Positions 1,640 through 29,113 of a stretch of DNA of 64,000 nt are shown one piece after another. The DNA comes from Bispira polyomma (Eukaryota). Both the position numbers and the translations under genes were made by a program. A model generated the notes under the pieces. That model had not been told where the DNA came from, ran no database searches, and was given only the letters and a program-made list of their open reading frames with translations. The stretch spans positions 31,620,001 through 31,684,000 of the forward strand of contig OZ287755.1 in the NCBI GenBank assembly GCA_965649765.1, given 5' to 3'. The first letter of the stretch is position 1, and each line of letters opens with the position of its first letter.

Positions 1640-3020
1640 CTGATAAACACAGGTTAATCAATTTGGTGATAGAAGGTGCAAGAATTTCAATGCAATCCTT
1701 GATAAGGAAAGTAGGCATAGGATCCAGGCTACATGATTTTGTTGGTGATTTTGTTGAACATTAATTTCTTGATGTAGTCAACACCAACTTCAGTAAAACA
1801 GGTGAAGCAGACATGAGTTGTTTGAAGAGACTCAGTCTTATGACTATCAGAAAAACTACTTCGAATGAGTTCTATTTTCTCTTAAAAATACTTGCAAAAC
1901 ATTTTTGCAACTGAAGTATCTGAATTGCAGTCGGGCAGCTTTCATGAAGTATACCATTCAATACATACCAGAGGGCCTTAGGGTCATTAGAGTTTTTTTA
2001 ACAATTCCTGAGTAGTAATTGGCTTTATTAATGAGAACATTGCATCTGTGAGTTAGCTGCCTTAACTTTGACTTGTATAATGCAGATAATGTAGGATTCT
2101 GCAGATTCTTACGCCAGAGTCTTTCATATACTGGCGGCGCAAACACTTTGCATTCAGGTACTCATCAGTGATCCAGGCAGGGGTAGCTTTCTTAAGTGAC
2201 TAAGCAATCACTGGGGTATGTTTGTCTGTGACATCTGACAGAGATTGTACATATTGGTCGTACAGTGTTGTAGGATCATCAGAAGGAGCCGTAACAAAGC
2301 TTGTATTTTTTAAGTCAGCTCTAAATGAATCCATATCAATTTTGTGATATTGACGGAAATGAACCTCATAAGCTACTTTATTGTGGACATAGTCACAGTC
2401 TTAGTTTCAGACAGTTGAAAAATGATCACTAACAAAAGCATTTTGCCGTACTTCGGAGAGACTTCGGAGATTATAGTAAAATCTAAAGTATGGCCATGTA
2501 TATGTGTTGGAAAGTCAACTAATTGATTGCGATTGCATGATGCGAGTAATGATTTAAACTTTTGGCTATGTTGGGTATCAGTATCATACTGAAATCGCTG
2601 ACTATGACGAAGTCGGATTTGAATGTTGACAGGTAAGTAACTAGTCCCATGAATTAATCCAGAAAAAGCGGGAGGATCTAGGTGGTCTGTAAAGGACAAT
2701 GATGTTGACCAGGGACTGGGGACCAGTACAGAAACAATAATATGTTCAAAAGTTTTTGCAGGAAAGGCTTCTAGCCGCTTTACACTCAAGGTGTTCCTGA
2801 CAAGTATTCCAAAACCCCCACCAGGTGCATGCTTATGAGGAATATGATCGAGAATATAATTAGCAGGCGTGAGGTCATTTAAAAGTGCAGGAGTATCGTT
2901 GGGTTTTATATGGGTCTTCGTGATCCCGAAGATGTCACAGCTGGTACTGTTTAAAAAGTCCTCAACAATCGGACCTTTGTTTCGAACAGAGTGGCAGTTC
3001 ACATGTCCCAGAGTTATTGG
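1640..3020 (-). mobile_element. degraded non-LTR retrotransposon (L2/CR1-like) ORF2: AP endonuclease and linker
   Basis: ORF 2373-3002 has NCHSVRNK, GGGFGI and QLVDFPTHIHGHTLD (APE motifs); ~1660-1735 reads SCSLDPMPTFLIKDCIE, typical of the pre-RT linker. Confidence 0.85.
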
Positions 3021-4049
3021 TCCGGGATTTATGGCAATATGAAGCCAGGATTTTGCAGGAATTATGCGAATTCAGCATATATTTGGTGTAAATTTAAATA
3101 AGAGGTCACGGAAATGACAAAAATGCGACTCTCCTGGTAAACGCTTAATGCTTAGATATCCTACATGATTGTAAATACAGCGCATCTCCAGGGAATACTC
3201 TGGAGATCTAACTGCAGATGACACATTTCTGCAATTTCATCATCTGTATCACTGACGCTTACTGAATATGTTTGTTTTGGCGTCTGATTCTTTATGCGAT
3301 CAGGTATTTTTAGCCATATAATTAATTTACTTGTAAACGAGAATTAAATAGTCAATTTATACAATGCGTATAATAATTTTATTTCTGTTTATAAACACTG
3401 CAATTTTTTAAACTCGCGTACTCAATAGGCTTTTTTGATTATTTAATGTGTAATAACATACAAGTTGTGGCCCCTCAGTTAAGATGCTCTTATATTTAGA
3501 GAAAAGGCTTTGAATAGCAAATACTCGGTCATATTGCTTGCTTCCTGTTAATGGATATTGATAGGAGTTTTAAGAGAAAGGCAGTTTAGAATGAGAATGT
3601 CTTACAAGACAGTTTAAGTTTTTCTTTATCTGTAGTTAGAAGTTTATAGGAGGCATTGGAGATAGGAAATTAGTAGAGAATTATGTTTCAGATTGATTTG
3701 CTTATTATTGACTACTTGCATTTATTTTAATGATTACCAACTATCGCCAGTAGCCGATGGTCTAAACATTTTTTTTCAATGATATGGTCCAAAATTGTTT
3801 TGAAAATCTCAACACAAAATATATATTATGTAACTGTTAGCTGAATAACTTTTCAGTTTCATATATGAAATCCTTTGTATCTACATGCTAAACTATGATT
3901 TAAGGTGTGTGAGGCTATGTGAGGCTGTCAGAACAGCGTGTCAAATTATTATGATATTTAACTCATACGTAGACTGTTAAGAGCATATATCCAAAACAAA
4001 AACTCTTCTAAACCTAGCAAACTAGAAAATGGTATGGTTTCCATTGTCT

Positions 4050-7675: not shown

Positions 7676-7876
7676 TTTGAATTTGAATTTGGATATTTAA
7701 CGTCCATTCTCTAGTACCTTTTAGTAGGTTATATTGGGATGGGTAGAAACACTGCATACAGTTGGTCAAGGTTCTGCAGAGAAACCAGCGGCCCACAGTA
7801 AGGAACTACCACCTTTCCCACATAGGCATCAACGGGATTCGAACTCACGCCGCCTAGAGGTGAGAGACCAGTGAAT
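7676..7876 (-). mobile_element. SINE family 1, 5'-truncated
   Basis: B box GAGTTCGAATCCC, shared core, (TTCAAA)n tail. Confidence 0.85.
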
Positions 7877-7959
7877 GAAACAATAAAAAAATAGTGCTTT
7901 TGTCCAGTCGTTCCCCTTCTTTCAAAATTTTGATGCTAAACTGCCTGACTATTATAACT

Positions 7960-8926: not shown

Positions 8927-9973
8927 ATGATGTCTAAGAAGGAATTTCAGTGCAGTGCATGTATGGGCAAACATGAGCGCCCAGTGGGAAAAAATGTCGT
9001 TATGTGCTGGGGCATGGCGTCGCCGATGAAGTAACCACAGTTTGTCATGCTACTACCCCTGAGATGTCGGATACAGTGTCCAGTTTAATCTTACAGCAGC
9101 TTCAGTCTCTCAATGAGAAGATAGATAGCATGGACCAACGTTTGCAGGTTACAGAGGCAGCGCTGTGCTCACCCAGCGCCAATAATTTGTCAAATGTTAC
9201 TGTAGCCAGTACTGCTAGTACCAGTATCGCCAATAGTGTTGCTAGTAATCCAAGTAAAAATGTAGCTAGTAGTGTTTCTGAACCAGCCGTCGAGGCAGTA
9301 GTCCCCTCCTTAGATTTTCTTAGATCAAATGAAAACCTTCAGTCTCAGGTGGATCAGCGCCTACTGCAGTTGCAACAATTAAATAAGTGGGCAGGAGGTA
9401 AAATTAAATCTCAACGTGGGGGTGTTGATGCACCTATAAAAGGGCTGTAGACTGGCCCCAGAATTTCGTTTTATCAGGAACAAAAAAGACCACACCCACC
9501 TATGACGATTTATCTCTAGTCCAGTTTACATCTGGTTTCATACGTTGTGTGCAAGAACAAAAGGTCCCAGCCATGCGAGAAGCTATGCTCGAGTATTTGG
9601 CTAATCTTATGGATGATGCCCATCATTTTTCATGGGAAGCAGCCAAGGCCTCACACGCAATTCTCTTAACAAATATGGAACTTGATTGTCTTAAATGGAC
9701 AGATGTTGATAAGATTGACCTCATACGTCGGGCTCATGCCCAACGCCACCTTACTTTGGGTGCCAGTGGCTCTGTTTCTAAAAAGTCGAATGGTGCCTCT
9801 AAGAGTAAGATACAGCTTAAAAGCCAAGGCGTGAACTGCAGGTTCTTCCAAGAAGGCACCTGCAAGTTCAATGCAAGTCATCGTACTTCGGATCAGTTAT
9901 TCAAGCATGTCTGTGAGAATTGTGAGGAGGCCATCAGACAAAACTGTGTACTAAAAAGAATGTAAAAAACTAA
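8927..9973 (+). pseudogene. gag-like ORF1 of E2, frameshifted
   Basis: N-terminal CSACMGKHERPVGK zinc motif, coiled-coil-like segment, WPQ, WEAAKASHA, RRAHAQ, C-terminal Cys/His fingers. Confidence 0.8.
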
Positions 9974-12454
9974 GGGGCCACTGCAGTAATGCAGTGGCAG
10001 ATAGAAAAAGGTTACAAAAAGTCTACTCTAGAGTTGTGTATAATTCAGCATTTACTGATTTTAATCTGTGTGAAAAGGTGTGTTTTAATCATGTATCAAG
10101 TGTGTCAAAAGGTCTTACAGGGACGTGGTGTTGGGAAAAGCTGTTTCTGACAAAATAAAACAAGAAGGTCCTGTGAGCGATGTTGGGAATAATGAAAGGC
10201 AGGCTCTTTCTTTGGAAGTCAAAACGAGAACTTTCAGTAAAACAAAGGGTGCCAAACTGAAACATGTAAATAAGCCTTTACATTCTCCCAGGTCGCACAA
10301 TGGAAACTTCTGTGCCAACAAACCCAATTTATGCTCTATTGTTAGCAGGACTAACAACGTGTCACAAGTTGCCAAAGCCGAAGCAAACAATAAGTGTCAA
10401 AAAGCCCCTCCCCCAAAAAGGGGGGGGGGGTTCTTTGTCCCCAAATGTAAAACCAACTAACCTGGAACAAGGTGTCAACAACCAAAGTGATTTCCAATTA
10501 CCCGTTTACAATAGATTTGCATTGTTAGACTCCCCTAGTGTACAGGCCGCGGAAACTATTGTCTCTGCCCCCGTGGTTGATGGCAAATCTTGTCAAAAGC
10601 CTCCAAATAAACAAAAACGTACAAGAAACACTCAAGTGAATACTTGCGACGATAAATATGCATTGGAAGTGTACAAATGTCCCGATAAAAGACAGCGTCT
10701 AAATAGTGCCAAAAACTGCGATACCTACAAGTTGTGGGATATTCAAAATAACGGGAAATGTGGTTTTATTCCACTTAGCTCGTGGGGTGTACCCATTCAA
10801 AATGAATCACATAACAAGGTTACTATGGACGTGTTCACTTTACATAAGCGACTAAAACAAGATGGGCGGTCCAATTACAGGGGACTACAAATACCGGTGA
10901 TTACACAGTTGAATGCCCTAGTGTGGGAGAAACTGGGTATTGGGATTGGGAACTCCCTTTACTCATAAAATTTGGTTTCCCCCTTGATTGTGACGAGGAA
11001 CACGTCTTTCACTCTGACCTTGATAACCATTCTTCAGCTACTCAGTATCCAGATCATGTGACTTACTATTTTAAAGAGGAATGTAACTTTGGGGCCATAT
11101 ATGGCCCATTTGCAATTCCCCCAATTGATAAAGTACATACTTCTCCTTTCATGACCAGGGACAAGTCGAGTTCGATTAACCGATGAGTTATCATTGACTT
11201 AAGCTGGCCCCTCGTACATTCAGTTAATGCAGCAGTGTGTCCTACCATGTACTTAGGAAAGGAATTTATACTCCCTTATTCTTCTATTGATACAATCACT
11301 GAGCAGGTACTTGTCATGGGGAAAGGTTCCTTAATCTTTAAAGCTGATATAAGTCGCGCTTTTAGACATGTGACAATAGATCCGAGAGATATTAATTTGC
11401 TGGGACTGTACTGGGATGGTTATTACATAGACGGCTCGCTCCCGTTCGGTTTTAACACGGTTCGGCCATTTTCCAGCGAATTTCGGATGGAATAAGGTAT
11501 ATAATGCAGGGTGAAGGTCATCAGATTACGAACTACATCAACGATCTCCTTTGCTGCTCAGTACCTACAAAAATCTACAAAACCTACAATAGATTGCAGG
11601 CTCTATTAACCGAACTCGGTCTGACCTTGAGTAAGAACAAACTGGTTCCCCCTGCTACACAGGTTACCTGTCTGGGTATTGTTATAGATACTGTGGAGTT
11701 CACCACCTCCATACCAGAGAAGAAATTACTAAATATCCACACCACTTGTGATAGCTGGGCAAACAAAACATTCTGTACTAAACGTGAACTCCAGTGCCTA
11801 CTAGGTTCTCTCTTATATATTTCAAAATGTGTGAAATACTCCATGTTTTTTCTCAATAGGATGCTCCACCTCCTCCGAAGCAACCACAAAAATAAGTCAA
11901 TCAAAATTAACCCCGAATTCAACAAAGATCTCAATTGATTTAGAACCTTTCTTACCAAATTCAATGGGGTTTCCTTTTTTCAACACAAACCCATTACTGC
12001 TATTATAGAATTAGATGCCTGCCTTACTGGTATGGGAGGTATTTATGACAATCAAGTATACACCCTATCTGTACCTTTTGAAATGCAACAACTAAATATT
12101 GCTTCTCTAGAAATGTTTAACATTTTGGTAGCTCTGAGGTTGTGGGGTGTGCAATGGAGAGGTCGTGCAGTATTAGTACAGTGTGACAACCAGGCTGTGG
12201 TTAGTACTCTCACCCATGGCAGAACACGAGATGAGACTCTAGCTCTATACTCTAGAAATATTTTCATGACAGCCAGCCAATATGATGTGGAGCTGAAAGT
12301 AATACATATCTTAGGTGAAGACAACTCCACTGCTGATCTACTGTCATGATGGACCAACTCTCAGCAGAATTATACTCGCTTACATGAACTTGCAGGTCCA
12401 ACTCAGTGGTGCTCTGTTACAAATGATCACCTCAAAGTAGATGAAAATATATAA
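9964..12454 (+). pseudogene. pol (spacer, RT, RNaseH) of E2
   Basis: SPFMTRDK, KADISRAFRH, LPFG, YIND (YxDD site), ELDACLTGMGG, LEMFNILVA, CDNQAVV; several stops and frameshifts. Confidence 0.9.
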
Positions 12455-12498
12455 TTAATATAGCATTAGTGTCTTCCTTGTAGTTTCTATTTTTACAG

Positions 12499-13471
12499 AG
12501 AGCAACCCGGTTCAGCAGTCACTATACAGACATGCCACTGCCAAACTACACCTGGCTTTCTGTAGATCTACTGACAGGTCCTACAACTCAATGTATAGAT
12601 GATATCATGCCTATGCTGCCTTCATGGATTTTCTAGTGGATCAGGTGACTGTGTTTGACCTCCTTGCTTTAATTCTGTAAAACCTGCTTTGATGGCCAAT
12701 TATCTTTCTGCTATTAAGGCTAAGTCTATTGTCAATAATGTCTCCATTCTGGCCTTCAGTGACCCACGCATTGCTTACTATCAAAAGGCTGTCCAGATGT
12801 CGGCCCCTCTCCAGGTTAAACTGAAAAAAATTATAGATATCCCCACTTTGGGTCAAATTGTAAGACTTTCACTCACCACTTACATGGGACTGGTGTTTCG
12901 AGCTGTATACCTAGTTAGCTTCTTTTCTTTTTTACGCCTTTCCAATCTTGTTCCCCATGCTGTCCACCTTTTTTCTCCTTTAAAACACCTAGCACGTGGG
13001 GACGTTATGTTTCATCCTGATAAGGCTGTACTATTCATTAAATGGTCAAAGACCGTGCAGAATAATAAACAAATCAAATTAATCACCATCCCCTGTCTCA
13101 TGCCCCATGCCCTTTGCCCTGTGAGGTCACTTGAGGATATTATGGCTATTTCACCTTCTGGTGTTAACCTTTCTTTATTCCAGGTAAAAGTCAGCCAGAA
13201 GTGGGTACCTCTAACTGACACTAAGGTACGTCGTCATTTCACAGATATTCTTACCAGACTGAATCTTAAAGAGTCTGGACTTACCCTACACTCTTTCGGT
13301 CGTTCAGGTGCCACATTTGCCTTCAATAATGATGTTAGCATTCAAAATACACAAAACCATGGCACCTGGACCTCGGATTGCGTGTGGCGGTATGTCATCG
13401 ACACTGTTGATGCCGGCAACCAAGTGGTTGACACCTTTAAGCGTCAACTTACAGTCTTCCCCTTTCCTTAA
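12499..13471 (+). pseudogene. tyrosine recombinase of E2
   Basis: FLRLSN, KWSKT, HSFGRSGA, HGTWTSDCVWRY; N-terminal part has a stop and a deletion. Confidence 0.9.
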
Positions 13472-13606
13472 GCCTTTTTTCTTATACCCCTACCTTTTGG
13501 GGTTTGGCTGATTGTCATATGTAAATGATTTTACAGCTGTAACTTACTCAGCTAATTCACTTATTACTCATAAAGTATATGTAGATACTTCTAAAGCTCA
13601 CTTTAA

Positions 13607-13742
13607 TAAATTACGTAACTCGCTAGTCATAAACTCAGTAACTTAACTGTAATTACGTAACTTGTTAGTAAGCAATAAAATCAGTAACTTAACTGTAATT
13701 ACGTAACCTGCTAGTCATAAACTCAGTAACGTAACTGTAATT
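13607..13742 (+). repeat. ~3 tandem copies of a ~42-46 bp unit in the E2 3' region
   Basis: Unit AATTACGTAAC..CTAGTCATAAACTCAGTAACTTAACTGT is repeated. Confidence 0.85.
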
Positions 13743-15881
13743 GTCTCACTCTTAAGGCTATGCTTACAGTGCTATTTTTAACACCGTTAAATATATCTCT
13801 GCCTATAATGTAGTTCTAGTAAAACTTTACCATAAATTCACAGGTTATCGTAACTTCATTTAGACTCTAAGGTCACCTTTGCTTAACTGCCCACAGGGCT
13901 GTATAAATGTAATATGGACAATGACTTCCCCTTAAAGGTAAGGTGACCTTATCAAAATTATTACTCTAAATAAAATATTTATTGTAGGTGGCCTTAAGTC
14001 ACTTACTTGTTGTAATATTAAAATTAGTTATGGTGACCTTAAGTTGCCTTGTACACAGTAGTTTAACATCTTAGTCTAACAATAAATATTTTACCGCATT
14101 CTGTGTGTACACATACCTGTGTTCTTGATCTCTGACCTTTGACCTGTTACTTGGGGAAATGTATCAAGAATCTTTCGACTCAATCTTTTCTGTAAAATCA
14201 TGTAATAACAATATTATATCTGAACTAAAATCCAGAATCTACAACTACAGCTGAAAATCAATAAAATGTTTAATTAGACAACATACATCATTGCTTTCTC
14301 ATTTTATATACTACATTTTCTCTTTTAATGCTTACAAGATTTTTTTGTAAATAATGTGTTGGCTGTTTTAATTTTCAATCCATGCTTACAAAGCAGCATT
14401 AAAATGATGTCAAAGTATGGATCAAACATATGATATCCTGTGTAGTTCACCATTAGGTTTTATGGACCACATTACTGCAGTTTATCTTGGTAATAGGATT
14501 GTATTAAACACTCATTACACTACTGGTGCTCCACATTATATTCACTGTCGTTTGTACTCTCATTTCATTACAAGGCACTGCGTAGTTCTGGACTCACTTT
14601 AGTAGAAAGGCCATTTTATGTGAAGGATTTTGTGGGATAAGTTTTTTTAATTGCAAGCTTAATCAAAAGATCACTTTCTCATTTTAACAAAAATCAAAAA
14701 TTATTTCAGATATTTTAAGTAGTTACATGTATATTATTTTCTATTAGCTTTAACTGTTTAAAACTGAATGAAATCAGGTATATTCTCTATATCTAAATAA
14801 GGGGTCATCTTAACAAAAAGGTTAAGATATAGATATAAGTTACTATGCAGTGAAACTTTCATATCACCACAAGTAACTGACACATATTTGTGATATCAAA
14901 GTGTTACCAATGTTATCAATAATTCCTTTTATAGTTCTACGTTGATGCCCAAATATGACACTTTTGAAATGTAACATGAATGAAATTTGTTCAAAAGAGG
15001 AAACCATAATATATTCTTTTCCAGAAGTAGGTGGTTAGTGCCAATATGTTGTATATATCATCCTGGTGATTTGAAGAATGTGAATCATATATATTAAGTG
15101 ATTTAACATATGTCTTATCAGACAAAACAACTACAGTTAACATTAATTTGCTTTAATGCAAACTATACATGGTATTTACACCGGGAAATAGATCTACATA
15201 CTTTCTATATACATTCTATAAACAAATCAATGACCACAGCTAAGCAATTCTACAACTGTGCCGTAATGTTATACCAAATCTGCTATTCCCAACTGGTATT
15301 TTGTCACTGATCTGGGACAAAGGTTCCTGTCTATAACCCCCAATGTGTGGAGGCGTTATATACTTCCGGTTGATCATCCCCATTCAATCTTCCATTCCTC
15401 ACAGTCCCCACCCCACCAAGCCAAAGGATAATAAATAAGACATCTGCGGTTACTCTTTTATTATATATATGCACTCTCTAATACTACTATATATTTACAC
15501 ATCAATCATGATTATACACGGTTATACATGCTTACACATTATTACATAAAACACATTGTTCTCAAACCTATTGTGACCATAACTTAAACTAGGATCACTT
15601 TAAGGTGATCTTAACTTGACTTTACGATAACCTTAAACTGAGTCACTACTATAAGGTGACCTTAAGAAATTTGTGCAAAAAGTGGGCACCACTCTAAGGT
15701 GACCTTAACTGTTACATAATGGTTTTTTAGATTATTTACATTTCTGGTTAGTGACCTCATAGTGTCACCATAACTACATGTGTAGGTATATTACAGGAAT
15801 AGTTGAGTATTACATTTGTACGTATAAAATTTAAACCCAATATAACATTAAAAAACCTTCAAAGCCCAACCTGTAATACAT

Positions 15882-16907
15882 TTATTGCATATTATCTAGA
15901 ACATTCTGTAGTGATGTAGCCACAGTTTCACTCATACGTGAATCACCATGAATATATCTCCACGCACAATCCGACGTCCAGGTGCCATGCTGCTGTATTT
16001 GCTGGATAGATACGTTAGTGTTGTATGCAAACGAGGCACCTGAACGCCGGAACGTGTGGAAGGTGTAGTGGTTGGGGGCCAAGCCCAAGTTAACGTTAAT
16101 TTTTGACAAGACCTTGCGCACACGTGTGTCAGTTAGCACTTGCCATTGATGGTTAGATTTATACTGAAATAAGGGATCTAGCCTAGAAGGAGCATACAAC
16201 TTGAGTAGCAATTTTAAGGCCCTATATGGGCACAGTAGAGGGTCGGATAGCTTGGGGAGGGTAAGCAGATGTACTTTGTCACGTGTTTGCAAGGTTTTTG
16301 TCCATTTGATTAATATTTTAACTGAATCTTTGGTGAAAAACAAGTCAGCTGGGGTAAGATGCCTAGTTGGATCAAATGCCGAAATGGAGTGGGGGGAGAT
16401 GTTTGATATCCTCAGAAACCCGAAAAATGCTGTCAAAAAGACAGCTTTGAACACTGGAGCCAACTTTACATTATCACACTGTTGTATTAAAGTCTTTAAT
16501 GCTGGAATGTCCAATATGTTATGTGTGGTTATAGACAAAGGTCTGTTTAGCTTTGCAGCTTTTAGATAATATTTAATCTTTTGATTTTCAAGGGGGGAAA
16601 CTGGCAACCCCAGGATGTTGAAGTTGGCCTTAATAGCTGATATGTAATTAGCCATCATTTGGGGTGAGACACTGTTGAACATCAACAATTCTAGGAATGA
16701 CATTATACAATTTACAGATACTTTTTGCAATTGAATTTTCACATATATACAAAACGCCACAAAAGTCCTGAACTGTTGTGTGTATGAACTCTGTGTCTTT
16801 GGCCTGAAGGCTGCTTTGAGACGAGAATTAGCTTGTGTACCCAGCTTCTGCAGTAGCCGATGACCTGAAACAAAGTATAGCATCATTAGTTCTAATCTAT
16901 AATTCAT
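15882..16907 (-). CDS. intact tyrosine recombinase of E3 (probable exon start 16864)
   Basis: 341-aa ORF with FLRISN, KWTKT, HTFRRSGA and HGTWTSDCAWRY: full R-K-HxxR-H/W-Y set. Confidence 0.9.
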   Translation of the reverse strand: MNYRLELMMLYFVSGHRLLQKLGTQANSRLKAAFRPKTQSSYTQQFRTFVAFCIYVKIQLQKVSVNCIMSFLELLMFNSVSPQMMANYISAIKANFNILGLPVSPLENQKIKYYLKAAKLNRPLSITTHNILDIPALKTLIQQCDNVKLAPVFKAVFLTAFFGFLRISNISPHSISAFDPTRHLTPADLFFTKDSVKILIKWTKTLQTRDKVHLLTLPKLSDPLLCPYRALKLLLKLYAPSRLDPLFQYKSNHQWQVLTDTRVRKVLSKINVNLGLAPNHYTFHTFRRSGASFAYNTNVSIQQIQQHGTWTSDCAWRYIHGDSRMSETVATSLQNVLDNMQ

Positions 16908-19062
16908 TATCTACCCCTAGCATATTGAGTGAAGTTGTTAGCCATACAGGATTACTGATATAACCGTTCAACTCATTGACATTTTCTGCAGTGCCCTGCC
17001 ACCTGGATAACAAATCCGCTGTTCTATTTAATTTCCCTAAAACATGAACATATTCAAATTCAATGTCTGCTACTGCAGCTGTAAACCATATATTCCGGGC
17101 ACATGCTGCCAAAAAGGGATCTTTTACTCTGCCCAGCTTCAATGCCCATACCACTGCTTGGTTGTCACATTTAATGCACACTTTTTTTCCAGTCCAGTCA
17201 GCCTGAAATAACCTGGCAGCCAACAACACATTGATCATTTCTAAGTGCACAATATTAAGGTTCATGTAGTCTTTTGGGACTTGCAAATGGTAAACCCAAT
17301 TTTTCCAGACACCTCCAAGTCCAGTTAGACATGCGTCCAGCTCTATAATGTGATCCACAGCCCTGTAGTCATACATTGAAATACCATTGTATGAAGGAAG
17401 GAACTTACTAAACCACCTCAGGTCTCTGTGAAAATCATTAGTGAGCTTAATACTACTTGAGTTATGAGAATTTCTTAATAATTCAAGCATTCTATTGAGG
17501 AATGTACGAGCTGGTTTTACCCATTTGTGTACGTATAGTAAGAGCCCTAGCAATGACTGCAACTGACATTTAGTACATGTGTCTTTTGTTAACCAGTTTT
17601 TAACCATTTCTTGAATAGTTTTTCCTTTGGTATTGACATGGTACCTTCAACTGTGTCTATTAACACGCCCAAACATACTGCCTGGGTAGCAGGTGTTATG
17701 AGTTTTTTGTCACTGATATTTAAACCAAGATCTTGCAAGGTGCTAAATAAGCAATCATACGATTTTTGGACGACAGAGGGCGTGCCGTACCCGATAAAGT
17801 CATCGATATAATTTACGACATTGTAACCATGGCAATGCATAACATAACGTACCGCGTCACTCAATCTTTGGAATATTTGGCTGCCTTGTCTACTTCCAAA
17901 TGGGAGGCACGTATCTACATACGCCCTCTATTAACCGAATTTGGTTATTCTCTGCTCATGAATGGTGAGAAGTGCCCCCCTTTAATTGGATGTTCACTAA
18001 AAGGACCTAATATAGCCCCATACTTGGCCTCTTCCTACAAGTATACTTCAATATCTTCTGGATGGTCAGTGGCCGACTTATGGTTATTACCTTCCCACCT
18101 CAAAGGGCACTGAAGTCTACTGGGAAACCAAATTCAATCAGTTCCACCAACTGCTTATCCCAGTACCCATTGAGATATGTGCGCCAATTTTTGACATTTA
18201 ACTGTGATACCAATGGTATTCGTGCACCCCTGAAGTTATAATCTCCACTGTTCTTGATTACCTCATGTTGGTGAAAAGGATCAAGTATTGTTTGGGTGTT
18301 TTTTGCTTTAGATTTGTCACTACCCATTGGATCAGACAAGGGGATAAATCCAAAGTCAAACTCTGACTGAGTATGCCAAGCTTTAAAACTGGCCACATTG
18401 ATCAAATTAGTACTGTCCATGTCACGTGTCTTTATTCTTCCCAATACAGAATTGATGAATTTATCATCATCTGTGTACCTATTAACATCATAAAGCAAAT
18501 GGTTTGGTTTTTTAGGATCGTCACTTAGTTCACCTTGATCAATTTTATTAGTGTCACCACTGCTAACTTGCGTTGTTTCAACAGGCATGTCACCAATCAT
18601 GTCAATCAAGTGAATGTCACTTTGGTCAGTTTTTTCCCATTCATTACTTTGAACTAAGTCTTGGCTGTCACCACCCTTATTCGTCGTCAGTGTTAAAGCC
18701 AGGCCCATGTTTTTATTTGTGCCATTACTTTGATTGTCTGTATAGGCCATTGTTCTTTTGGAATGAAAGACTTTACTAATGATTCGATTGCTTTGCCTAC
18801 TTGGGGTGACTGTGCTTGTGTACTTAAAACTTTGTTCACTTTTACGTGCTAATAAAGCCTGGGTTTCTTTTACATTAACACCAGTACGATAGAAGACTCT
18901 TGTTCTAAATACATTGGCCACAACAAGAGAAGCAGTATATTTGACTTTCCCCAATTCCACACCATGCTGTTGAACACATACATTAGTACTAACCATATGA
19001 TCATTTACTTGTTTTCTGCTGCCCTCACCCTGATCTAGACTTGAGCAGCTTGCTAGTTTTTT
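16897..19062 (-). pseudogene. pol (RT, RNaseH) of E3 with internal RT deletion near 17920 and frameshifts
   Basis: NYIDDFIG, ELDACLTGLGG, CDNQAVV. The RT segment between SPFMSRE and YVDTCLPFG is missing relative to E4. Confidence 0.9.
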
Positions 19063-20221
19063 GCGAACATTTTCTTTTTAGCGAATGTGCAATCTTTTTC
19101 TGGGTGATTTAATTCCCTTCCCCTGTCCAAACATGTTGAACAAATATGTTTATGCATTTTTCCCCCTGTCTCATGATCTTTTGTGTGAGAGCAGCTACCG
19201 GTTTGAAAGTTTTTACAAAACCAAGGTTTTCTGGTTGTTTCAGTACTTCTTGCCCAATTTGATTTACCTGACCCTGCGAGATGTTTTTGCGCATGCGCCC
19301 TGCGAATCCTATCTATGCAAGATGTATTTTGCCATGTCAAAGTGCCTCTCTCCATCTCACACAACAGAACCACATGTGCCGCTTTAGCTCCCAGCCATGA
19401 AAAATCTGTTGCGTCCTCCATAAGTTCAGACATGTACTGTACCATTTTATCCTTAGTTTTACTATCACGTTCTTTCAAAATATTTTTACAGACGCCCTGA
19501 ACCCACTGTGTCAGTGACAGCTGGTCATAAGCAAGTCTTTGCCTGCTGGTCCCCCCAAAAATATATTCTTGAGGCCAGGCCACTCGTCGTTTAACAACCA
19601 CGTCAACATTGCCCCCCGTTTTGATTTAATTTTTGAGGTGAGAAATTTACCTGCCTGACATGCCCCTTCACATTCTAGTTCCCGTAACCTGCTGTCAACC
19701 TCCCTCTGTATGTCTTGAGAGGATCTTAATACAGACATAGTGGGTACCACAGATTCATCTGAAGAGGTGTCACTTTCACTTGAGATCATTCTACTTTTGT
19801 AACTACTTTTACTTTTACTGTAATGTTTCTGACAATCTACATCACTATCACTTTCACTGTTTTTACTTTTTGATTTGCTTTTACTTTTACTGTAATGTTT
19901 TTTAGAAGCACTACTTAACTTAGTATTGTCCCGTCTGGCACTTGTGGTTTTCGCCCGCACATCTGCGACTTGTCCCTCGACCATGTCCAGTCGTGAGTTC
20001 ACCTTCTTGAGTTGCATCAGGATTTGCATCTGTACACTGTCCGTGTCCTCCACTGCTGACTCCGCCATGTCCATCTCCAGACTCGCTGGCTGTGGTGTAT
20101 CCTTCACTCCCTCCACCTGTGAACTGCTACTGCCGTCGTCTACCAAGGTACACTTCTTCCCCGTGGGTGGTGCGTGCCTGGTCATACATTTTTGGCACAA
20201 TGCTTTATTGCTCTTAGGCAT
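19053..20221 (-). pseudogene. gag-like ORF1 of E3 (one frameshift near 19612)
   Basis: CQKCMTRHAPPTGKKC, Ser/Lys-rich internal duplication, WPQ, WLGAKAAH, RRAHAQ, C-terminal Cys/His fingers. Confidence 0.85.
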
Positions 20222-20867
20222 TTTTAATTGTCAATGTTATCTGGAATTTCTGAAAAATATTCACAGCCCTCTGAACGCTGATGTGACAACTTCAAGCTTG
20301 TGATCAAAATTCGACCAATTTGGACAACATTAACTAGTTAAAATGATTTGAATCGTCCCTTTTAAGATGCCCTTTCAGGCAATACAAGCATGAGGTTGTC
20401 AGATCAGCCGAGTGCACTCCAACTGTATTCCGACTCCACTGAGTGAGAATTACACAAGTACTATTCCATGTTCTAGTCCGTTTCTTAAGTCCAGTTTATA
20501 TATGCACAATCACTAAAATGAACTAAAAACGTAAAAACAGTTTGTAAAATTGATAAAAGCTTTATAAATATAAAAACAGTTCTAAACAATTTAAAACAAT
20601 TTAAGCACGTCTGTGCCATTCGATCTCAAGTTTTAAACTGAAGCTAAGTCACAAATGGTAGGTGAACCCTTACACTTGGGCCAATCAGAATTTAAGATAA
20701 TAAACAATTTGAACCCCTAACAACCAGTGGAAATCCCATGATGTCATAACCTTTTTACCTGTTAAAATTAGTCTGGTAACTTAAGCAGATTTCTAAAGGG
20801 TGAGGCAGGACTGACTCCAGTGAAGCCTAGACACCACGAGTGACAAGACACTTCTGGATAAAAGATC

Positions 20868-21105
20868 ATGGCCTGGTTTCCTCTAAATTAATTCAAGCTC
20901 AATTTAGATTCAACTCAAATGACGGCTATCTGTTATTCACTGAACATGGAAATAACGTTCAGTTGTAACCATTCATTTTAATAGAGTTGAATTTTTAAGA
21001 TTTAGTTAGATGTTACCTATCTTTAACGCTAGCCCGAAATAGGGAGACCTCAGGTTTGAGCTTGATTCTGAGTTGAGCTTGAGATGTTTGGAGAATATGG
21101 CACAG
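20868..21105. mobile_element. degenerate fold-back MITE-like element
   Basis: TCAAGCTCAATTTAGATTCAA at the left is an imperfect inverse of TTGATTCTGAGTTGAGCTTGA at the right. Confidence 0.55.
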
Positions 21106-21299
21106 GGCCTCCTGTTAAAAGTAACTGACACTTAAACTCACAACTAAATCTTAGGATAAAGTACCATGTGAGAGCAATGATATATGGAAATACTTGTAAC
21201 CCCTAATATTATTCATTACTTGGTTTAATAGAACTTTCAAAACTGAATAATTAAAATATAAATGCACATTGTATTTTTACATCTTTTTATTTACAAACA

Positions 21300-21640
21300 T
21301 CAACAGTCAAACACCAACAAAAGCACACACACATAAATATGAATATATGAATTGGGACAAAATTGGAAAAAATACATAAGAAAGACAATATTATAGCCAA
21401 AAATAACATAGAAGAAACCACTGCTCTTTCTCTTGAGGATACAAAGAAATAATGAAAAGATTAAAGACCTGTTGACACATCTCCCACATGTTTGTAAAGA
21501 CAATGCACGTCTAGGGATCTATTTGCAGAACACATAGCTCTGCAAGTTAGACATCTGTATCTCTGTCGCTAATGGAATATTTTTGTTGTGGGGTATGATT
21601 TCTCATGTTATCAAATATTTTTAGCCACATTATTAATTTA
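21300..21640. repeat. diverged duplicate of ~29440-29740
   Basis: Shared CTGCTCTTTCTCTTG.GGATACAAAGAAATAAT and CCTGTTGACACAT..TTTGTAAAGACAATG. Confidence 0.8.
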
Positions 21641-23199
21641 ATTGTAAAAGATCATAAGAGAGTCACTGAGTCCTATATATTTAAACATAAATATTTAACA
21701 TCACATAATTGCCATATCAAACCTAAAATTGTACTCTGTGTAAATGTAACAGCAGATTTAAAAAAGATAAATGTGGTGCCAGAAACAAGAATTATGGTAG
21801 ACACTATCCCAAATTGTATGACCTAGAGCCTTAGGAACATTGATAAATGGTCATCCCTATCAACCTCTCATAGACACAGAAGCTAGGCCCACACTATGGA
21901 AGCCTCCATTGCAATAAATGTTAATTGATTTACCCTTGCAGTATCCATTAATTGATTATCCCACTGGCTTTATTGGTGGCGTCTGCACCTTTGTGTCTCT
22001 AAGTTTTCTGTGTAGGAGAATAGCCAAGAATTAGGTGTTTCTTTAAAATTAATGGTCTTAGCAAAAGGCAAAGACTAATAATTTAAAGAAACACCTGATT
22101 CAAGGCAATTATCTGATTTAAACTGCTGAAAACTAAGGTGACGGTAACAAATTGTATTTTTAAGTATTGTTTAAAGTCATTTCGAATTTCTAAATACACA
22201 TACACCCAATATAATTATAAATAAAGGTAATGTGATACAATTTTATGTTAATATAATTTTATATCATAATTTTGATAAATAAATGTAATATATATTTAAA
22301 AGTTACTGAATATGATGTACCAATGTAAACTTGAACTGAGTAATTTAATAAACAAAGTCCTTCATTGATGTGGCCCAGAAAGCAGACAGGACATTCTTTA
22401 AAAGGAAAATTTTAAACAATAGGTATCACCCAAACAGGAGTTTAAATTTATGTTAATGTTTTCTGTGTGTAGTGATTTGCAAGTAAAGAAATATAGACTT
22501 TGGAATATCTCTATAGAGTATAGAAGAAGTTCACAATTCTTTAAAAAATAATTGCACAATTTATTGAACCTCTGGGAGGTGATGGTAGCCAAATGGCAAA
22601 TATTATAATACATATGTCAGGTACTTGTCGTATGGCTTACAGTGCTTCAGCACTGCTTTCTTCTACCATTGAATTTGACCATCGTAATATGACATAAACT
22701 GTTTAAACTGATATAATAGTTTAATAAATAACATTAATAAGTAACAGCCCATTGAAAACGATTTTTGAGGAGTAATTTTTTCAATAGATATCTGTACTGA
22801 TGTCCCTTCCATAGATTCTATCTTAAAAAATTACATTGGCTTCCCATTTATTGTCGAATTCTGTTTATAATCCATGTCAATAATTTCAAAGCGGTTGTCT
22901 CTCAACAACCCTCCTACCTTGCAACTTGTGTTTACTTGAGTAATCTCAAGAGAGGAAAGGACTTGATGTTTTCTCTTTTATTATTATTGTAGAACGTTTT
23001 TAGTTGCTGTCCTCTCTGTTAGGGACTAGTCCCCCAGTTGAACTTGGATCACAAGTTTAGTAGAACAATCTATTTAGTAATATAATATAACGTTTTCTGA
23101 AGAAAAGCAATTTCACTTTTTCTCCAATATTTTACATCCACTTTGTAATAGTACAAATTGTTTAATCCACTGCTTACCAATTTGTGTATTCCAGTACTA

Positions 23200-23344
23200 T
23201 ACAAGGCAACGCCCTAGCGTTGGTGGGTTTAGTTCGGGATACCAGACTGCTCGTCACGCCTGGCTGTGTTTCACTATAAAAGGCAGGAAAATTTAAATCT
23301 CCCTCCTTTTCGTCAACCGTCAGCAGAAGAACAACTTCAAAATA
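23200..23344 (+). repeat. terminal repeat A1 of E4 with TATA box
   Basis: 145-bp direct repeat of 27771-27915; contains CACTATAAAAGG. Confidence 0.93.
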
Positions 23345-23448
23345 GAATAACCTGAAGGGTTAGGCAGAGAGTCTATGTTTTGTGTTTTACATTTTTATAT
23401 TTATTTTTTTACAATTTTAGATTTTTAGTGTAACAAACTTCTCTCATA

Positions 23449-24291
23449 ATGCCACGAATTAAGGTTTATAGTTATGCAAAATGTATGGGGAAACACGCTA
23501 GGCCAGTGGTAACAAATGTACTCGGGTATTGCATGAGGGGTCCGTTTCCGAGGACGAAATCAAAGGGGCAGTTTCGGAAGCTACTGACGTCTGGCCGCTG
23601 TTTCTAGTAAAATATCGCTGAAATTAGAAAGTATGGGACAAATGATGGAACGATTAGATAAACGTGTCTTGGTCACGGAGGCGGCTCGGAGCACGGACTC
23701 TACTAAAGCTCAGGCCAGTTTGATTTGCAACGCTAGTCCAGTGACTGCTTCGGTTGAAAAGGTCAATACTATAAGTGATGATAATGTGATTCCTAGCATC
23801 GAGTTCTTGAAGAAAAATACCTGCATGGCCCCAAAATCATGTTCTGTCGGGCAATTTTAAAACACGTCCGAGTTATGATGATCTGTCCCTCAGCCAATGG
23901 GTCTGTGGATTTACCAGAATAATTCAAGACGAGAAAAAGCCGGAAATTAAAGAAATCATGTTAGATTATATGGCAGGCTTAATGGAGGACCAAAGCCTGC
24001 CATGCGGTCGTGTTGACCACAATGGAAATGGACAAACTCCAATGGACGGAAGTCGATGAACCGGTTGAGGCGAGCTCATGCCCAGAGACACGTCGCTAGT
24101 AGTAGCAGTAGCTATAACAGTACTCATAGTGGCCGTAGTAGTAAAAAGCCAACTGTAAGTTTCATCAAGAAGGCACGTGCAAATTTCCTTCCAGTCATAA
24201 AAGTGGAAATACCTTTTTTAAGCATGTTTGTAAAACTTGTGCTGGAGCACATAAGCGTAGTAACTGTAACCGAAAATTGGCCAAAAACTAG
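23449..24291 (+). pseudogene. gag-like ORF1 of E4 (internal deletions, frameshifts)
   Basis: AKCMGKHARPV, IPSIEFL joined directly to WPQNHV, RRAHAQRH, CKTCAGAH..C. Confidence 0.8.
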
Positions 24292-24884
24292 GAGCCCACT
24301 GCAGGAATGCAGAGAAATTAAAATGTGTGACCCTAGCCCAGTATCTGTACACAATAGGTTAAATGTACTAGCTTCTTCGGATTTGACAGACTCTGTTGAC
24401 ACAGATAAGGTAATGCAAACAGATCACATAGTTACAAAAAATAGTAGCTCAGTGCGACGCAATACTGTTGATATACGTGCTAGTATTGCGCATCAAACTA
24501 AAACAGTGGATACTGAGGACACTGTAGTCAGTGATAAATATGCTCTAGAATTAAAGCAAAAAATCAACAAAAAATAGCTTTTAAACAGGGCTAAAAATAA
24601 CCCTACATATTGTGAATGGCGCAGCCAGAACAAAGTCCAGTATGGCTTTACCCCAGTGTCCGGCTTAGGTTGTAGAATCTGGGATAGGCAGGCCAACAAC
24701 TATAGTTCTGATATTTTACAAATGCACAAAGCATTGAGAACTGATGGTAGACAAAATTTTAAGGGCTTGCAGATACCTGTTAAGTCACAATTAAACCCTG
24801 AAAAATGGTCGCATTATTTAAAGTCATATTGGGAGTGGCAATTGCCGTTATTAATTAAATATGGTTTTCCGCTTAATGTGATTC

Positions 24885-26306
24885 GTGAAAACATTAGTCA
24901 ATAACTTTCCAGAGCACGTAGACCTTTATTTAAAAGAAGAATGTAACCATGGTGCTATATTGAGCCCATTTTCTAGCCCACCAATAGAAAAAATGCATTT
25001 TTCCCCTATGATGACGTGCAATAAATCCAGCTCGAGTAATAGGCGGGTCATTGTTGACCTTAGCTGGCCAATTGGCGAGTCCGTAAATTTGGGGGCTTCT
25101 TCTAACAAATATTTGGTTACAGAATTCATATTATCTTATCCTTCAGTTGATAATCTCACTAATGAAGTTCAAAAATTAGGTAGAAGTTGTCATATATTCA
25201 AGGTCGACATAAGTCGCGCATTCAGGCACGTGCCTATTGATCCAGGTGACGTAGATTGGTTGGGTTTAAAGTGGGATTCCTATTATTTGGATAGATCTCT
25301 CCCGTTCACCTTTCAGAACGGAACCACTATTTTTCAGAGAATTTCGGACGCGGTTCGATTTATTATGTTACAGGAGGGATTTCACATCCATGCCTACATC
25401 AACGATTTTTTATGTGTAGCTCTTCCCAGTAAAAGCAATATCATATATGACAGACTCCAAGCTCTGTTGGGTGAATTAGGTCTTACTGTCAGCCCTAAAA
25501 AGTTAGTTCCTCCTAACACAAAGGTAGTATGCCTGGGCATTTTGATAAACACAGTGGACTTTACCACTTCAATTCCTGTGGAAAAAATGAACAAAATCAA
25601 AAAATTATGGGAAAATAAACAAAATTGTACTAAGAAAAAATTGCAGTTACTGCTTGGGTCCCTTTTATACGTTTTGAAATGTATTAAATATGCTTGGGTG
25701 TACCTTAACAGAATGCTACAGTTCTTACGAGATAACCATAGCAAGAAAAGATTCTCAATTACTACCGAATTTAAGAGAGATCTTAACTGGTTTAGCACAT
25801 TTATGCAACAATTCAATGGTACTAGTTTCTTTGCCCACAGACCTATTAATGCCCAGGTGGAACTGGACGCTTGTCTTACTGGCATGGGGGGTATATATGA
25901 TGGGCAAGTGTATAAGTTAACTGTCCCTCAGAATATGTCTCAACATAATATTGCATATTTGGAAATGATCAATATTCTTGTGGCTATTAAGTTATGGGCC
26001 AGTGATTGGCAAAGTAAAAGAGTATTATTTAAATGTGACAATCAGGCCGTCGTCAGCATTCTGACCAGTGGTCGCACCCAGGACCTGGTTTGGGCTACCT
26101 ACACTAGAAATATATACATGTGGGCCAGTCGGTTCGACATAGATATTAAAGTTATTCACATACTTGGTGTTAAAAATAAGGTTGCTGACCTTCTATTCAG
26201 GTGGGATAAGACAAAAAATAATGTGCAGTTGTTGCATGAATGGGTAGGCCCTGTAAAATGGCTTCCAACAAATGAAGCATTATTGGAAATAGATACTGAT
26301 ATTTAA
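24885..26306 (+). CDS. RT-RNaseH of E4 (open frame; catalytic YxDD reads YIND; upstream part frameshifted)
   Basis: 473-aa ORF: RRVIVDLS, KVDISRAFRH, LPF, YINDF, ELDACLTGMGG, CDNQAVV, NKVADL. Confidence 0.9.
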   Translation: MKTLVNNFPEHVDLYLKEECNHGAILSPFSSPPIEKMHFSPMMTCNKSSSSNRRVIVDLSWPIGESVNLGASSNKYLVTEFILSYPSVDNLTNEVQKLGRSCHIFKVDISRAFRHVPIDPGDVDWLGLKWDSYYLDRSLPFTFQNGTTIFQRISDAVRFIMLQEGFHIHAYINDFLCVALPSKSNIIYDRLQALLGELGLTVSPKKLVPPNTKVVCLGILINTVDFTTSIPVEKMNKIKKLWENKQNCTKKKLQLLLGSLLYVLKCIKYAWVYLNRMLQFLRDNHSKKRFSITTEFKRDLNWFSTFMQQFNGTSFFAHRPINAQVELDACLTGMGGIYDGQVYKLTVPQNMSQHNIAYLEMINILVAIKLWASDWQSKRVLFKCDNQAVVSILTSGRTQDLVWATYTRNIYMWASRFDIDIKVIHILGVKNKVADLLFRWDKTKNNVQLLHEWVGPVKWLPTNEALLEIDTDI

Positions 26307-26331
26307 TGGAATTTTTATGTTTTATTTTCAG

Positions 26332-27296
26332 GAAGCAATCCCATTAAAAACTTGCTGACAAGTCAGGCCTGCAAGAGGATGCACACTGCTCTAGCTGCCT
26401 CTACCACTGCTGTTCAGGCTTTTCATAGCTTTCAGCATTTTTATGGCTTGGCCAGCCTCTCAGGTGAATGTGTTCCATATTCTTACTTTTCTAGAATTCT
26501 TAAGCTATAACAGTGTGTCTTCCTCTCAAGTGGCTAATTACTTGTCAGCTTTAAAAGCTAAATGTATTCTATTCCATATGGATATCCAAGCTTTCTCTGA
26601 CCCTAGGATTTCTTATTACACTAGGGCTCTTCTGGTTAATAGACCACTGCAGGTCAAGTAAAAAAGTGTCTTTGACATTCCTCTCATGTTGAAGCTAGTA
26701 GAAAAATGTGAAGCCACCTATATGGGTTTAAAGCTATGTATGTAACAAGTTTTTTCAGTTTTCTTCGTTTATCTAATTTGTGCCCCCCACTCTAGGGCGG
26801 CATTCTCACCCCTTAAGCATCTGGCCAGGGGGGACGTTTTGTTTAAACCTGATTATGTTATTCTTTTGGTTAAATGGAGCAAGACTTTGCAAATTAATGA
26901 TGCAGTGAGGCTTTTGTCATTACCAGCTCTCCCCTCTTCCAAATTGTGCGCAGTGAGGGCCTTAAAAGCTGTACTAGCTGTGTCTCCCCCTGACAGAATG
27001 CCCCTTTATTTCAGTATAAAATTAATAATTCTTGGGTTCCAATGACGGATAATCGGGTGAGACGCCATCTTAAAAATGTCCTGGCTTTAATGGACATGCA
27101 GCATTCAAATTTAACTTTTCATGCCTTCCGGCGTCCAGGGGCCATGTTCGCGTTTAATAACAATGTTTGTCTGCAGGACATTCAGCGGCATGGCACCTGG
27201 ACGTCGGATTGTGTGTGGCGATATATTACCGATTCTGCTCAAGTAGGCACTCAGGTGGCTGATTCCTTGCTATGGCCCTACAAACTACCCCCTAGA
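26332..27296 (+). pseudogene. tyrosine recombinase of E4, fragmented
   Basis: FLRLSN, KWSKT, HAFRRPGA and HGTWTSDCVWRY across ORFs 26443, 26839 and 27042. Confidence 0.9.
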
Positions 27297-27337
27297 AAGA
27301 TTTGGGCTTGGTGGTTTGGGACATCTCAGAAAGAATC

Positions 27338-27771
27338 AAGAATCACAGTACTTGGGGCTTAAGGGCACCTTATTTTGGGGAGTACATTATGTACTCTTAC
27401 ACATCACTTATTAAAAATTCTAAATTCTAATCTTTATTCAAAATCTTAAATTGATCGACTTTATTTTAAATCTTTAATTCTTAAACTGAACTTTTTAAAT
27501 TCAAGTTAGGGTCACCTCTTTCCTTTTCAAAATTTTGGTCACCTTAACTCCAGTTTAAGAACTTAATTTATGGTAACCTTACTTTCTTAACTTATACTCA
27601 CCTTAGGGTTAACCCAACTTATCTTAACTTAAGGTCATCATATGCCCCTTCACTAATTGTATATAGTAGTTGTCTAACATGCTAGTATACTAATAAACTT
27701 GTGAACCGCAGCCTTTTTTCTGTATTACAAATTAAAATCTCATAGTTTCTGCTCTGGTTCCTGGGAACTGT
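27338..27771 (+). repeat. repeat B1 of E4
   Basis: 434-bp direct repeat of 28680-29113. Confidence 0.93.
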
Positions 27772-27915
27772 ACAAGGCAACGCCCTAGCTTTGGTGGGTT
27801 CAGTTCGGGGTACCAGACTGTTCGTCACGTCTGGCTGGGTTTCACTATAAAAGGCAGGAAAATTTAAATCTCCCTTCTTTTCGTCAACCGTCAGCAGAAG
27901 AACAACTTCAAAATA
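27771..27915 (+). repeat. repeat A2 of E4
   Basis: Copy of A1, abutting B1 at GGGAACTG-T-ACAAGG. Confidence 0.93.
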
Positions 27916-28679
27916 CCCACCCTCCTCTGCCCTGTTTAATTTTTGTTGTACTAGTTTCAGATGCTTACAATATCATTCACGGAGCAGCAGTGATCCTGTC
28001 ATGCCCTGTTGTGCTAGTATAAGCTGCAGGCTCGTTCCGACCTTGTGTTTGGGCTCATCACCACAGTACTCCCGGTCGGGTGCAAGATGGGATGTATGGT
28101 TTAACATTCTAGGCTCTGTGTTGTGGGCAATGACGAACTTTAGACAGCTTGTGACCTGGAGACTCCGGCTGTGGTGTATTATGTTGATGCCTGGATCCTG
28201 CTGTTTTGTTAAAGTGTTTAATTTAGTAATTAATTCTTTTCCTCCAACTGTATAATGTTATTAAGGGGTTGTATTGCTCAACCATGTAAGACTGTTGCAG
28301 TAGAGCTAAAGAGGGGAAATTCTGAGTTTAATAAACTTTACAAGATGGCTGCTTTACCATCTACCCGGGTTGGTTACCCTATACTAAATGACTTGTGGTG
28401 GAGTATATGCTATTAAATATTCTGTTATACCACGCTAACCGTGACCAGTCCTGCCTGTTGGCCGTTGTCCTTCTTCTCCTTTTGCTGATGTTTTGACATA
28501 AACTGTATTATTATTGTTTCTTTTAATTTCTTTTAAACTTTTACATTTTTGCATTGAATTTACACAAGTTATATGTTTTATTTACTGTGATATGTGGTTT
28601 CGGAAATCTCTTCTCACCTCAAACGTTAAAAAGTTTATCTGTTAAATAATAAAGAATACCAAAGGTCAATAAATAAATA

Positions 28680-29113
28680 AAGAATCACAGTACTTGGGGC
28701 ATAAGGTCACCTTATTTTGGGGAGTACATTATGTACTCTTATACATCACTTATTAAAAATTCTAAATTCTATTCTTTATTCAAAATCTTAAATTTATCGA
28801 CTTTAATTGAAATCTTCAATTCTTAAACTGAACTTTTTAAATTCAAGTTAGGGTCACCTCTTTCCTTTTCAAAATTATGGTCACCTTAACTCCAGTTTAA
28901 TAACTTAATTTATGGTAAGCTTACTTTTTTAACTTATACTCACCTTAGGGTTACCCCAACTTATCTTAACTTAAGGTCACCTTATGCCCCTTTACTAACT
29001 GTATATAGTAGTTGTCTAACATGCTAGTATACTAATAAACTTGTGAACCGCAGCCTTTTTTCTGTATTACAAATTAAAATCTCATAGTTTCTGCTCTGGT
29101 TCCTGGGAACTGT
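28680..29113 (+). repeat. repeat B2 of E4
   Basis: Copy of B1, ending GGGAACTGT. Confidence 0.93.

Follow-up and report, generated by a model that had tools for sequence, protein, structure and literature searches.

A window of 64,000 nucleotides (nt) from the genome of Bispira polyomma (contig OZ287755.1 of assembly GCA_965649765.1, positions 31,620,001 to 31,684,000) contains six diverged copies, E1 to E6, of tyrosine-recombinase (YR) retroelements, and the analysis presented here centers on E3 (20221-15882, minus strand), a copy with a broken reverse transcriptase (RT) and an open recombinase frame. The explanation that accounts best for the evidence overall, and which we regard as probably correct, is that a Ngaro-like lineage of these elements expresses its recombinase as a spliced fusion with the N-terminal half of Gag (GagN-YR), while the open exons of E3 itself owe their state to chance. 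The family-wide splice taken by itself is, given the footprints in protein and DNA sequence, very likely: the conservation of the splice sites is a direct observation, and from it we infer the spliced transcript.

In E3, all features of which lie on the minus strand, the predicted intron is of the GT..AG type and splits the frame in phase 1, with the donor CAG/GTAAAT at 19645..19653 (the slash marks the cut, the intron starting from 19650), the acceptor TTTGTTTCAG/GT and a GGT junction codon. Exon 1 (19651..20221) is the 5' half of gag, an open frame of 190 codons plus 1 nt, and exon 2 (15882..16864) encodes the tyrosine recombinase with its core-binding and catalytic domains; as the initial annotation had proposed, these open stretches of 571 and 983 nt join into a frame of 517 amino acids (aa) without an internal stop. 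The predicted intron between them (16865..19650, 2786 nt) takes in the 3' half of gag with its Cys/His motifs (19053..19650) and the whole of pol (16897..19077), which encodes RT and RNase H without a methyltransferase, has 286 relatives and is broken in E3, where RVT_1 and RVT_3 fall below the Pfam cut-off on the remaining pieces. At its downstream end a branch-point-like CTAAT (16889-16885) and a pyrimidine tract lead into the CAG acceptor, the whole signal (16865..16889) ending 32 nt after the pol stop. The donor is one of only two near-consensus donors within 15882-20600; the other, a second CAG/GTAAAT at 19267, was considered as an alternative and set aside, the relatives showing no conserved glycine there and the site lying downstream of the E3 gag frameshift. 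The protein encoded by exon 1 comprises an N-terminal CxxCxxxHxxPxGxxC motif, of a type present in 71 of 93 Gag relatives, a Ser/Lys-rich linker and a conserved helix ahead of the donor glycine. Two duplications were seen within gag: an in-frame 72-nt tandem one (76% identical) in the Ser/Lys linker at 19770-19907, and an internal one of ~80 residues suggested by the Gag relative P0121, which matches the start of the E3 gag 3' half twice.

The end of gag is marked by a slippery heptamer, A AAA AAC (19056..19062), just 5' of the stop codon and also present in E2, after which pol continues in the -1 frame, and most Gag relatives end in K-N-E/D. The TAG that closes gag after K-N was considered as a further, seventh lesion and rejected, as E2 and E4 also stop right after the A-run-AAC. 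In this lineage the full-length RNA would yield Gag and, through a -1 frameshift at the heptamer, presumably Gag-Pol, while a spliced RNA would join the mid-gag donor to the acceptor just past the pol stop, skip pol entirely together with the 3' half of gag, and encode a GagN-YR fusion of ~500 aa whose Gag half would probably serve to package the recombinase in the particle or to direct it to its target.

Both splice sites leave a recognizable footprint in the proteins of relatives. Of the 93 Gag relatives (337-595 aa) 80 could be anchored on the helix that precedes the donor, with 13 left out, and 79 of those 80 carry a glycine at offset 14-16 from the anchor. In 79/79 this glycine is preceded by S, Q, T, P, K, A or E, with all seven in use, which is exactly the set permitted by N-[A/C]-A codons, and in 78/79 it is followed by a residue that a codon starting with A can encode. 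Both features coincide at just 21% of the 2073 glycines that these Gag proteins contain, neighboring positions score 0.34-0.80 on the preceding-residue measure, and a recount on a plain alignment recovers the footprint in 87 of the 93. With a donor consensus of MAG/GTA, the amino-acid pattern at the donor glycine is, as read from sequence, what such a site in phase 1 imposes on the protein. On the recombinase side, where the best 120 of 315 relatives were taken, 93 contain the anchor motif and 52 extend upstream of the junction; among the latter an NYA-GNN acceptor footprint stands at the exact E3 position in 47 and within one residue of it in 51, preceded by a run rich in Phe, Leu, Cys and Val. 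A similar pattern in 30 of 34 more distant YR relatives was not counted, the window used there being loose (three residues either way).

The DNA of the window itself carries the same signals. A phase-1 YAG acceptor is present in E1 (to 1056, wider span 1-1570, plus strand, YR only), E2 (about 8930-13471, wider span 8930-14100, plus strand), E3, E4 (23196-29113, plus strand) and E5 (about 58559-53758, wider span 53500-58631, minus strand), with the YR beginning within 45 nt of the pol stop, and a phase-1 GT stands at the matching glycine in E2, E3, E5 and E6 (about 48700-46260, minus strand), the last of which has lost its YR. In E4 a gag deletion removed the donor segment, and the distant E5 possesses an open exon 1 of 189 codons plus 1 nt that ends in AAG/GTAAG. 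The recombinases of the copies with splice sites are 31-57% identical to one another; that of E3 shares 39-43% identity with those of E1, E2 and E5 and has no close sister among the window copies. The intron and Gag-YR fusion put forward in the initial annotation are well supported as a property of the whole lineage and not as something special to E3.

Several observations pull against the splice. The footprints in the relatives were deduced from amino acids, the relatives being available as proteins only and not being independent of one another, and among nine further conserved glycines of Gag there is one that reaches 0.93 and 0.94 on the two donor measures, albeit without the seven-residue spread. 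Neither the best 120 of 315 hits (lengths up to 571 aa) nor the best 150 of 5592 representatives (the longest being 420 aa) included an intronless GagN-YR frame; the YR matches are single open frames whose starts lie at the acceptor or close to it, and these sets therefore seem to contain no spliced gene models. Finally, E3, like many relatives, has an ATG in frame 6-7 codons upstream of the acceptor, and the differences in YR frame among the decayed copies discussed below could partly be the result of indels.

Some of these points lend themselves to an account without any splice, in which the recombinase is translated from unspliced RNA, either by programmed frameshifting at the end of pol or by re-initiation at an ATG near the putative acceptor. 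Poulter and Butler 2015, as quoted in PMC13003380, consider a frameshift probable where the YR overlaps pol in the -1 frame; the E3 YR frame does open 14 nt before the pol stop, with in-frame ATGs there, and many YR relatives begin with M-L-Y-F-V. The YR frame relative to pol, however, is -1, +1, +1, 0 and -1 in E1, E2, E3, E4 and E5, respectively, so that E3 with its +1 frame does not show the -1 overlap of the proposed arrangement, and a slippery heptamer near the pol stop occurs in only one of the five copies (E1), in contrast to the gag end with its heptamer in E2 and E3. Moreover, the stretch from the pol stop to the acceptor lacks an in-frame ATG in E2, E4 and E5, and the donor-shaped glycine within a variable Gag linker would be left unexplained. 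In fungal Ngaro elements, too, the YR is described as lying in or out of frame with pol (PMC3783388), a variability that splicing would explain and that argues against treating the -1 overlap as a strict Ngaro criterion. We therefore consider translation from unspliced RNA unlikely and retain the spliced GagN-YR fusion as the preferred reading.

The recombinase encoded by exon 2 appears complete. The full catalytic set reported in the initial annotation is in place as R151, K189, H269, R272, H292 and Y303, position 1 being the first complete codon of exon 2. In an alignment of 74 rows, composed of E3 and 73 of the 120 listed hits, themselves the best 120 of 315, each of the six residues is either invariant or conserved to 90% or more. 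An alignment-based model of exon 2 reaches a pLDDT of 87, against only 42 for a single-sequence model, and matches Cre and Tre along its whole length with TM scores of 0.57-0.60; by predicted fold, exon 2 is a full-length Cre-like recombinase. A profile search of the PDB sequences returned no match.

Set against intact relatives, E3 shows six lesions, all six of them in the predicted intron. Four had been named before, and all are found in their places between the predicted splice sites; the list was incomplete in that two nonsense codons, at 18037 and 17947, had been overlooked, and these are likewise intronic. One of the lesions is the gag frameshift in a G6 run (19617-19612), and the other five make up a damaged RT patch (17612..18112) with a frameshift at ~18110, the two stops, the loss of ~78 codons at ~17927 and a further frameshift at ~17616. 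Of 69 measurable relatives, 60 have a D-x-S-R-A-F motif in the segment that E3 lost, which we take to be the site of the first RT aspartate. Faulty assembly could account for the two frameshifts that lie within homopolymer runs or next to them, but for neither the deletion nor the stops. The pattern is that of one damaged RT patch and one homopolymer slip.

The initial annotation had read the confinement of the damage to the intron as possible retention of the recombinase or incipient domestication, and had allowed for chance. It is the latter that the data favor. The intron makes up 2786 of the 4340 nt (64% of the span), and under the assumption of independence all-intronic lesions would arise by chance with P = 0.17 for the four lesions first named and P = 0.07 for all six. 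A stretch of 500 nt holds five of the six (P = 0.004 if lesions are placed uniformly; P = 0.13 for three of the four indels alone), and such clustering means that they are not independent. At the lesion rate of E3 the exons would be expected to carry 2.1 lesions, with P(0) = 0.12, and the chance of clean exons in at least one of four near-complete copies is 0.39. The confinement of the lesions to the intron does not exceed what chance gives. Nor does the missense load differ between the two compartments: at columns conserved in at least 95% of relatives E3 departs from the consensus at 2/71 exon and 5/166 intron positions (P = 1.0), at 90% columns at 3/101 and 11/217 (P = 0.56) and at 80% columns at 11/137 and 16/279 (P = 0.40), with one of the exon mismatches sitting at a fragment edge and perhaps an alignment artefact. 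As intact relatives themselves average ~2% departures at the strictest columns, E3 is evidently young and this test has low power.

The intron, moreover, preserves functional residues just as the exons do. The YIDD motif of RT and the acidic catalytic residues of RNase H are both intact in E3, so that a complete catalytic set in the YR is no sign of selection on it, and lesion-free stretches of ~1500 nt in gag/pol and ~750 nt in RT/RNase H are as clean as the exons. E4 presents the mirror image, an open RT-RNase H frame of 474 aa beside a dead YR, while E5 retains an open gag with one frame break in its YR. The exons of E3 are probably open mainly because its lesions are few and most of them fall in one local patch, not through selection on the YR, and E3 itself is most likely an ordinary dead insertion. 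Two observations sit less easily with chance: among the five YR-bearing copies E3 alone has an open YR, the other four being broken, and its pol N-terminus is less relative-like than 97% of 36 comparable proteins, a slight lean toward faster decay of the intron.

These two observations bear on the possibility that the splice is real and that the GagN-YR frame of E3 was kept by selection after RT was lost, whether as a helper for other copies or in early host co-option. The all-intronic lesions, the nonrandom clustering of five of them in RT and two splice sites near consensus would be in keeping with such a history, as would the ability of the DIRS-1 RT to act in trans (PMC7192593). The lesion statistics nevertheless reach P = 0.07 at best and ~0.4 when clustering or the number of copies is taken into account, the missense comparison shows no contrast at any of the three thresholds (with low power in so young a copy), the clean intronic stretches and the reverse pattern in E4 speak against it, and no A1/A2 repeat pair confirms a promoter for E3. 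E3 may conceivably still supply recombinase in trans, which would depend on its unconfirmed candidate promoter. Selective retention, by way of domestication or a helper function, consequently finds no support in the equal missense load, the preserved RNase H and YIDD residues, the clustered lesions and E4, and we hold a domesticated or helper E3, like selection on its frame in general, to be a distinctly poor prospect; the fully specified version, a transcribed E3 that selectively lost RT and kept a complete Cre-like recombinase by way of the element's own splice, as helper locus or early host co-option, is slightly less probable again.

Equally improbable, in our judgment, is an origin of E3 in a nonautonomous subfamily that lost RT, spread on RT supplied in trans and kept the YR because it is needed in cis. 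The damage is indeed centered on RT, the missense load is low throughout and the DIRS-1 precedent for trans-acting RT (PMC7192593) applies here as well; on the other hand, no close copy of E3 exists within the 64-kb window, terminal repeat pairs are lacking, and RNase H and the pol N-terminus have decayed no more than the exons at conserved columns. Chance survival of the exons in an ordinary dead copy therefore continues to be the preferred reading for E3.

Downstream of the YR lies a B-like 3' region (15445..15881, minus strand) with GGTCACC-type motifs and the AATAAA..CCGCA end common to E1, E2 and E4, of which there is no second copy, followed by an A-like piece (15340..15440, minus strand) with TGGTGGG and then a TATA box, which may be the A2 of E3 or belong to another element. 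A match to this piece upstream of gag was not found, the best score of 22 being reached by 66 of 200 shuffles, and no repeat pair (A1/A2 or B1/B2) was found around E3, which may be truncated. E3 may accordingly have lost its promoter, but a TATA-like TTAAAAGG is present ~140 nt before its ATG, with a spacing like that in E2 and E4. In E3 (20251) and E4 (23421-23429) a T-rich..AG stretch resembling an acceptor lies 20-30 nt ahead of the gag ATG and suggests an intron in the 5' untranslated region as well. Further upstream of the E3 gag, 20500-21200 looks B-like by eye (GGTT/GGTA motifs, GTGCATATATA) and is possibly part of an older element, although it did not pass the motif count. The B regions of E1-E4 (1170-1500, 13860-14050, 15570-15790, 27480-27640 and 28700-28990) share repeated GGTCACC/GGTGACC-type motifs and AATAAA..CCGCA ends, candidate recombinase-binding or polyadenylation signals. 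E4 displays complete A1..B1-A2-B2 split direct repeats, with 23196-23344 repeated at 27767-27915 (95%) and 27334-27771 at 28676-29113 (96%), and A2 is separated from B2 by ~760 nt of decayed sequence that looks coding but is unrelated; its RT/RNase H region is 44-49% identical to that of E3.

By its gene content E3 belongs to the YR retrotransposons (order DIRS), combining RT, RNase H and a tyrosine recombinase without a DDE integrase, with the RT match above the Pfam cut-off in relatives and below it on the E3 pieces. Its first open reading frame (ORF) is gag-like, with Cys/His motifs in the 93 relatives, the name gag resting on position and size, with no significant Pfam match. The three ORFs lie on one strand in the order gag, RT/RNase H and YR and overlap little. 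RNase H is not followed by a methyltransferase: of 110 pol relatives in which the last RNase H motif is present, 105 end 34 residues past it, and in three of three full pol relatives scanned no methyltransferase family was detected, which sets them apart from PAT-like and DIRS-like elements; likewise, no DIRS-like inverted terminal repeats with an internal complementary region were found in 14000-22500. Taken together, these features make E3 a YR retrotransposon copy, fairly young and RT-dead, that is Ngaro-like by architecture (definitions as in PMC9210276, PMC4157794 and PMC3266345) and not formally filed as Ngaro, the comparison with Ngaro-, PAT- and DIRS-like elements being based on published descriptions.

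The likeness to Ngaro-like elements extends to the order of gag, RT/RNase H and YR, the missing methyltransferase and the split direct repeats of E4, whereas in the present lineage the YR is apparently reached by a splice from mid-gag and not by a frameshift from pol, no hydrolase ORF is seen after the YR, and E3 lacks a repeat pair. PAT-like and DIRS-like elements share Gag, RT/RNase H and YR, and PAT elements the split direct repeats as well, but carry a methyltransferase after RNase H; the inverted termini, internal complementary region and extensive ORF overlap of DIRS-like elements have no counterpart here. An analogue in expression strategy is the SD' RNA of murine leukemia virus and its product P50, where an in-gag donor is joined to a downstream acceptor to fuse the N-terminal half of Gag in frame to a domain of the integration enzyme; P50, however, includes only the last 116 aa of the DDE integrase and is an accessory protein (PMC10496198), whereas here the spliced exon would supply a whole Cre-like enzyme and the main route to it, the resemblance being one of analogy and not of homology. 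In Ty1/Copia elements a conserved splice of gag RNA likewise sets the ratio of retrotransposon proteins, although it yields Gag alone (PMC5580714), as opposed to the Gag-enzyme fusion with RT skipped that is proposed here. Precedents for host co-option of parts of YR elements are the domesticated Crypton DUF3504 genes (PMC3212892) and the DIRS gag-derived LAP2alpha exons of TMPO, together with ZNF451 (PMC4495291); such genes are old and conserved across species, and many DUF3504 proteins have lost catalytic residues, while E3 is young, sits among decayed relatives and exhibits no selection contrast.

Several other features of the window are recorded here. That six YR retroelements lie clustered within 64 kb may mean that earlier copies were targeted or that the region recombines little. 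Between gag and RT, E5 contains an open stretch of 190 aa (56649-57221) without a Pfam match, and the pol N-terminal region is long and variable in the family. An interspersed repeat of ~250 nt occurs in four copies, 76-94% identical, at 5664-5922, 7682-7877, 36304-36553 and 47843-48099, the last of them inside E6. Two copies of a short Cys-rich ORF end (40629-40940 and 59682-59990), each preceded by an acceptor-like TTTCAG and without a Pfam match, lie inside a duplicated block (39771-41008 with 58834-60055, 82%); their cysteine spacing resembles that of a ShKT-type domain. A decayed ORF at 2373-3071, also without a Pfam match, resembles the N-terminus of a LINE-type endonuclease.

How the third ORF of YR retrotransposons is translated is an unsettled matter, the review view quoted in PMC13003380 being that of a probable ribosomal frameshift. 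Full-text literature searches returned no report of a spliced Gag-YR RNA; the 2004 paper by Goodwin and Poulter, that of 2015 by Poulter and Butler, Repbase and supplements lay outside their scope and may already note the splice. The string 'Splic' has 0 occurrences in PMC3783388, PMC3266345 and PMC8547959, and the parts of PMC6681497, PMC2632668, PMC9341512, PMC3212892, PMC7192593, PMC13465315, PMC4495291 and PMC13003380 that were accessible contain nothing on a Gag-YR splice.

The interest of these findings lies nearly all in the expression strategy and not in E3. If the proposed splice is real, a mid-gag donor and a post-pol acceptor would settle how the YR is expressed in one large lineage, and the enzyme that carries out integration would be a GagN-YR fusion and not a free 325-aa recombinase. 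In Cafeteria Ngaro elements the loss of ORF1 coincides with a changed insertion preference (PMC8547959), and such a fusion would offer a reason for this effect of ORF1. It would also show which N-terminus to use when expressing these Cre-like eukaryotic enzymes.

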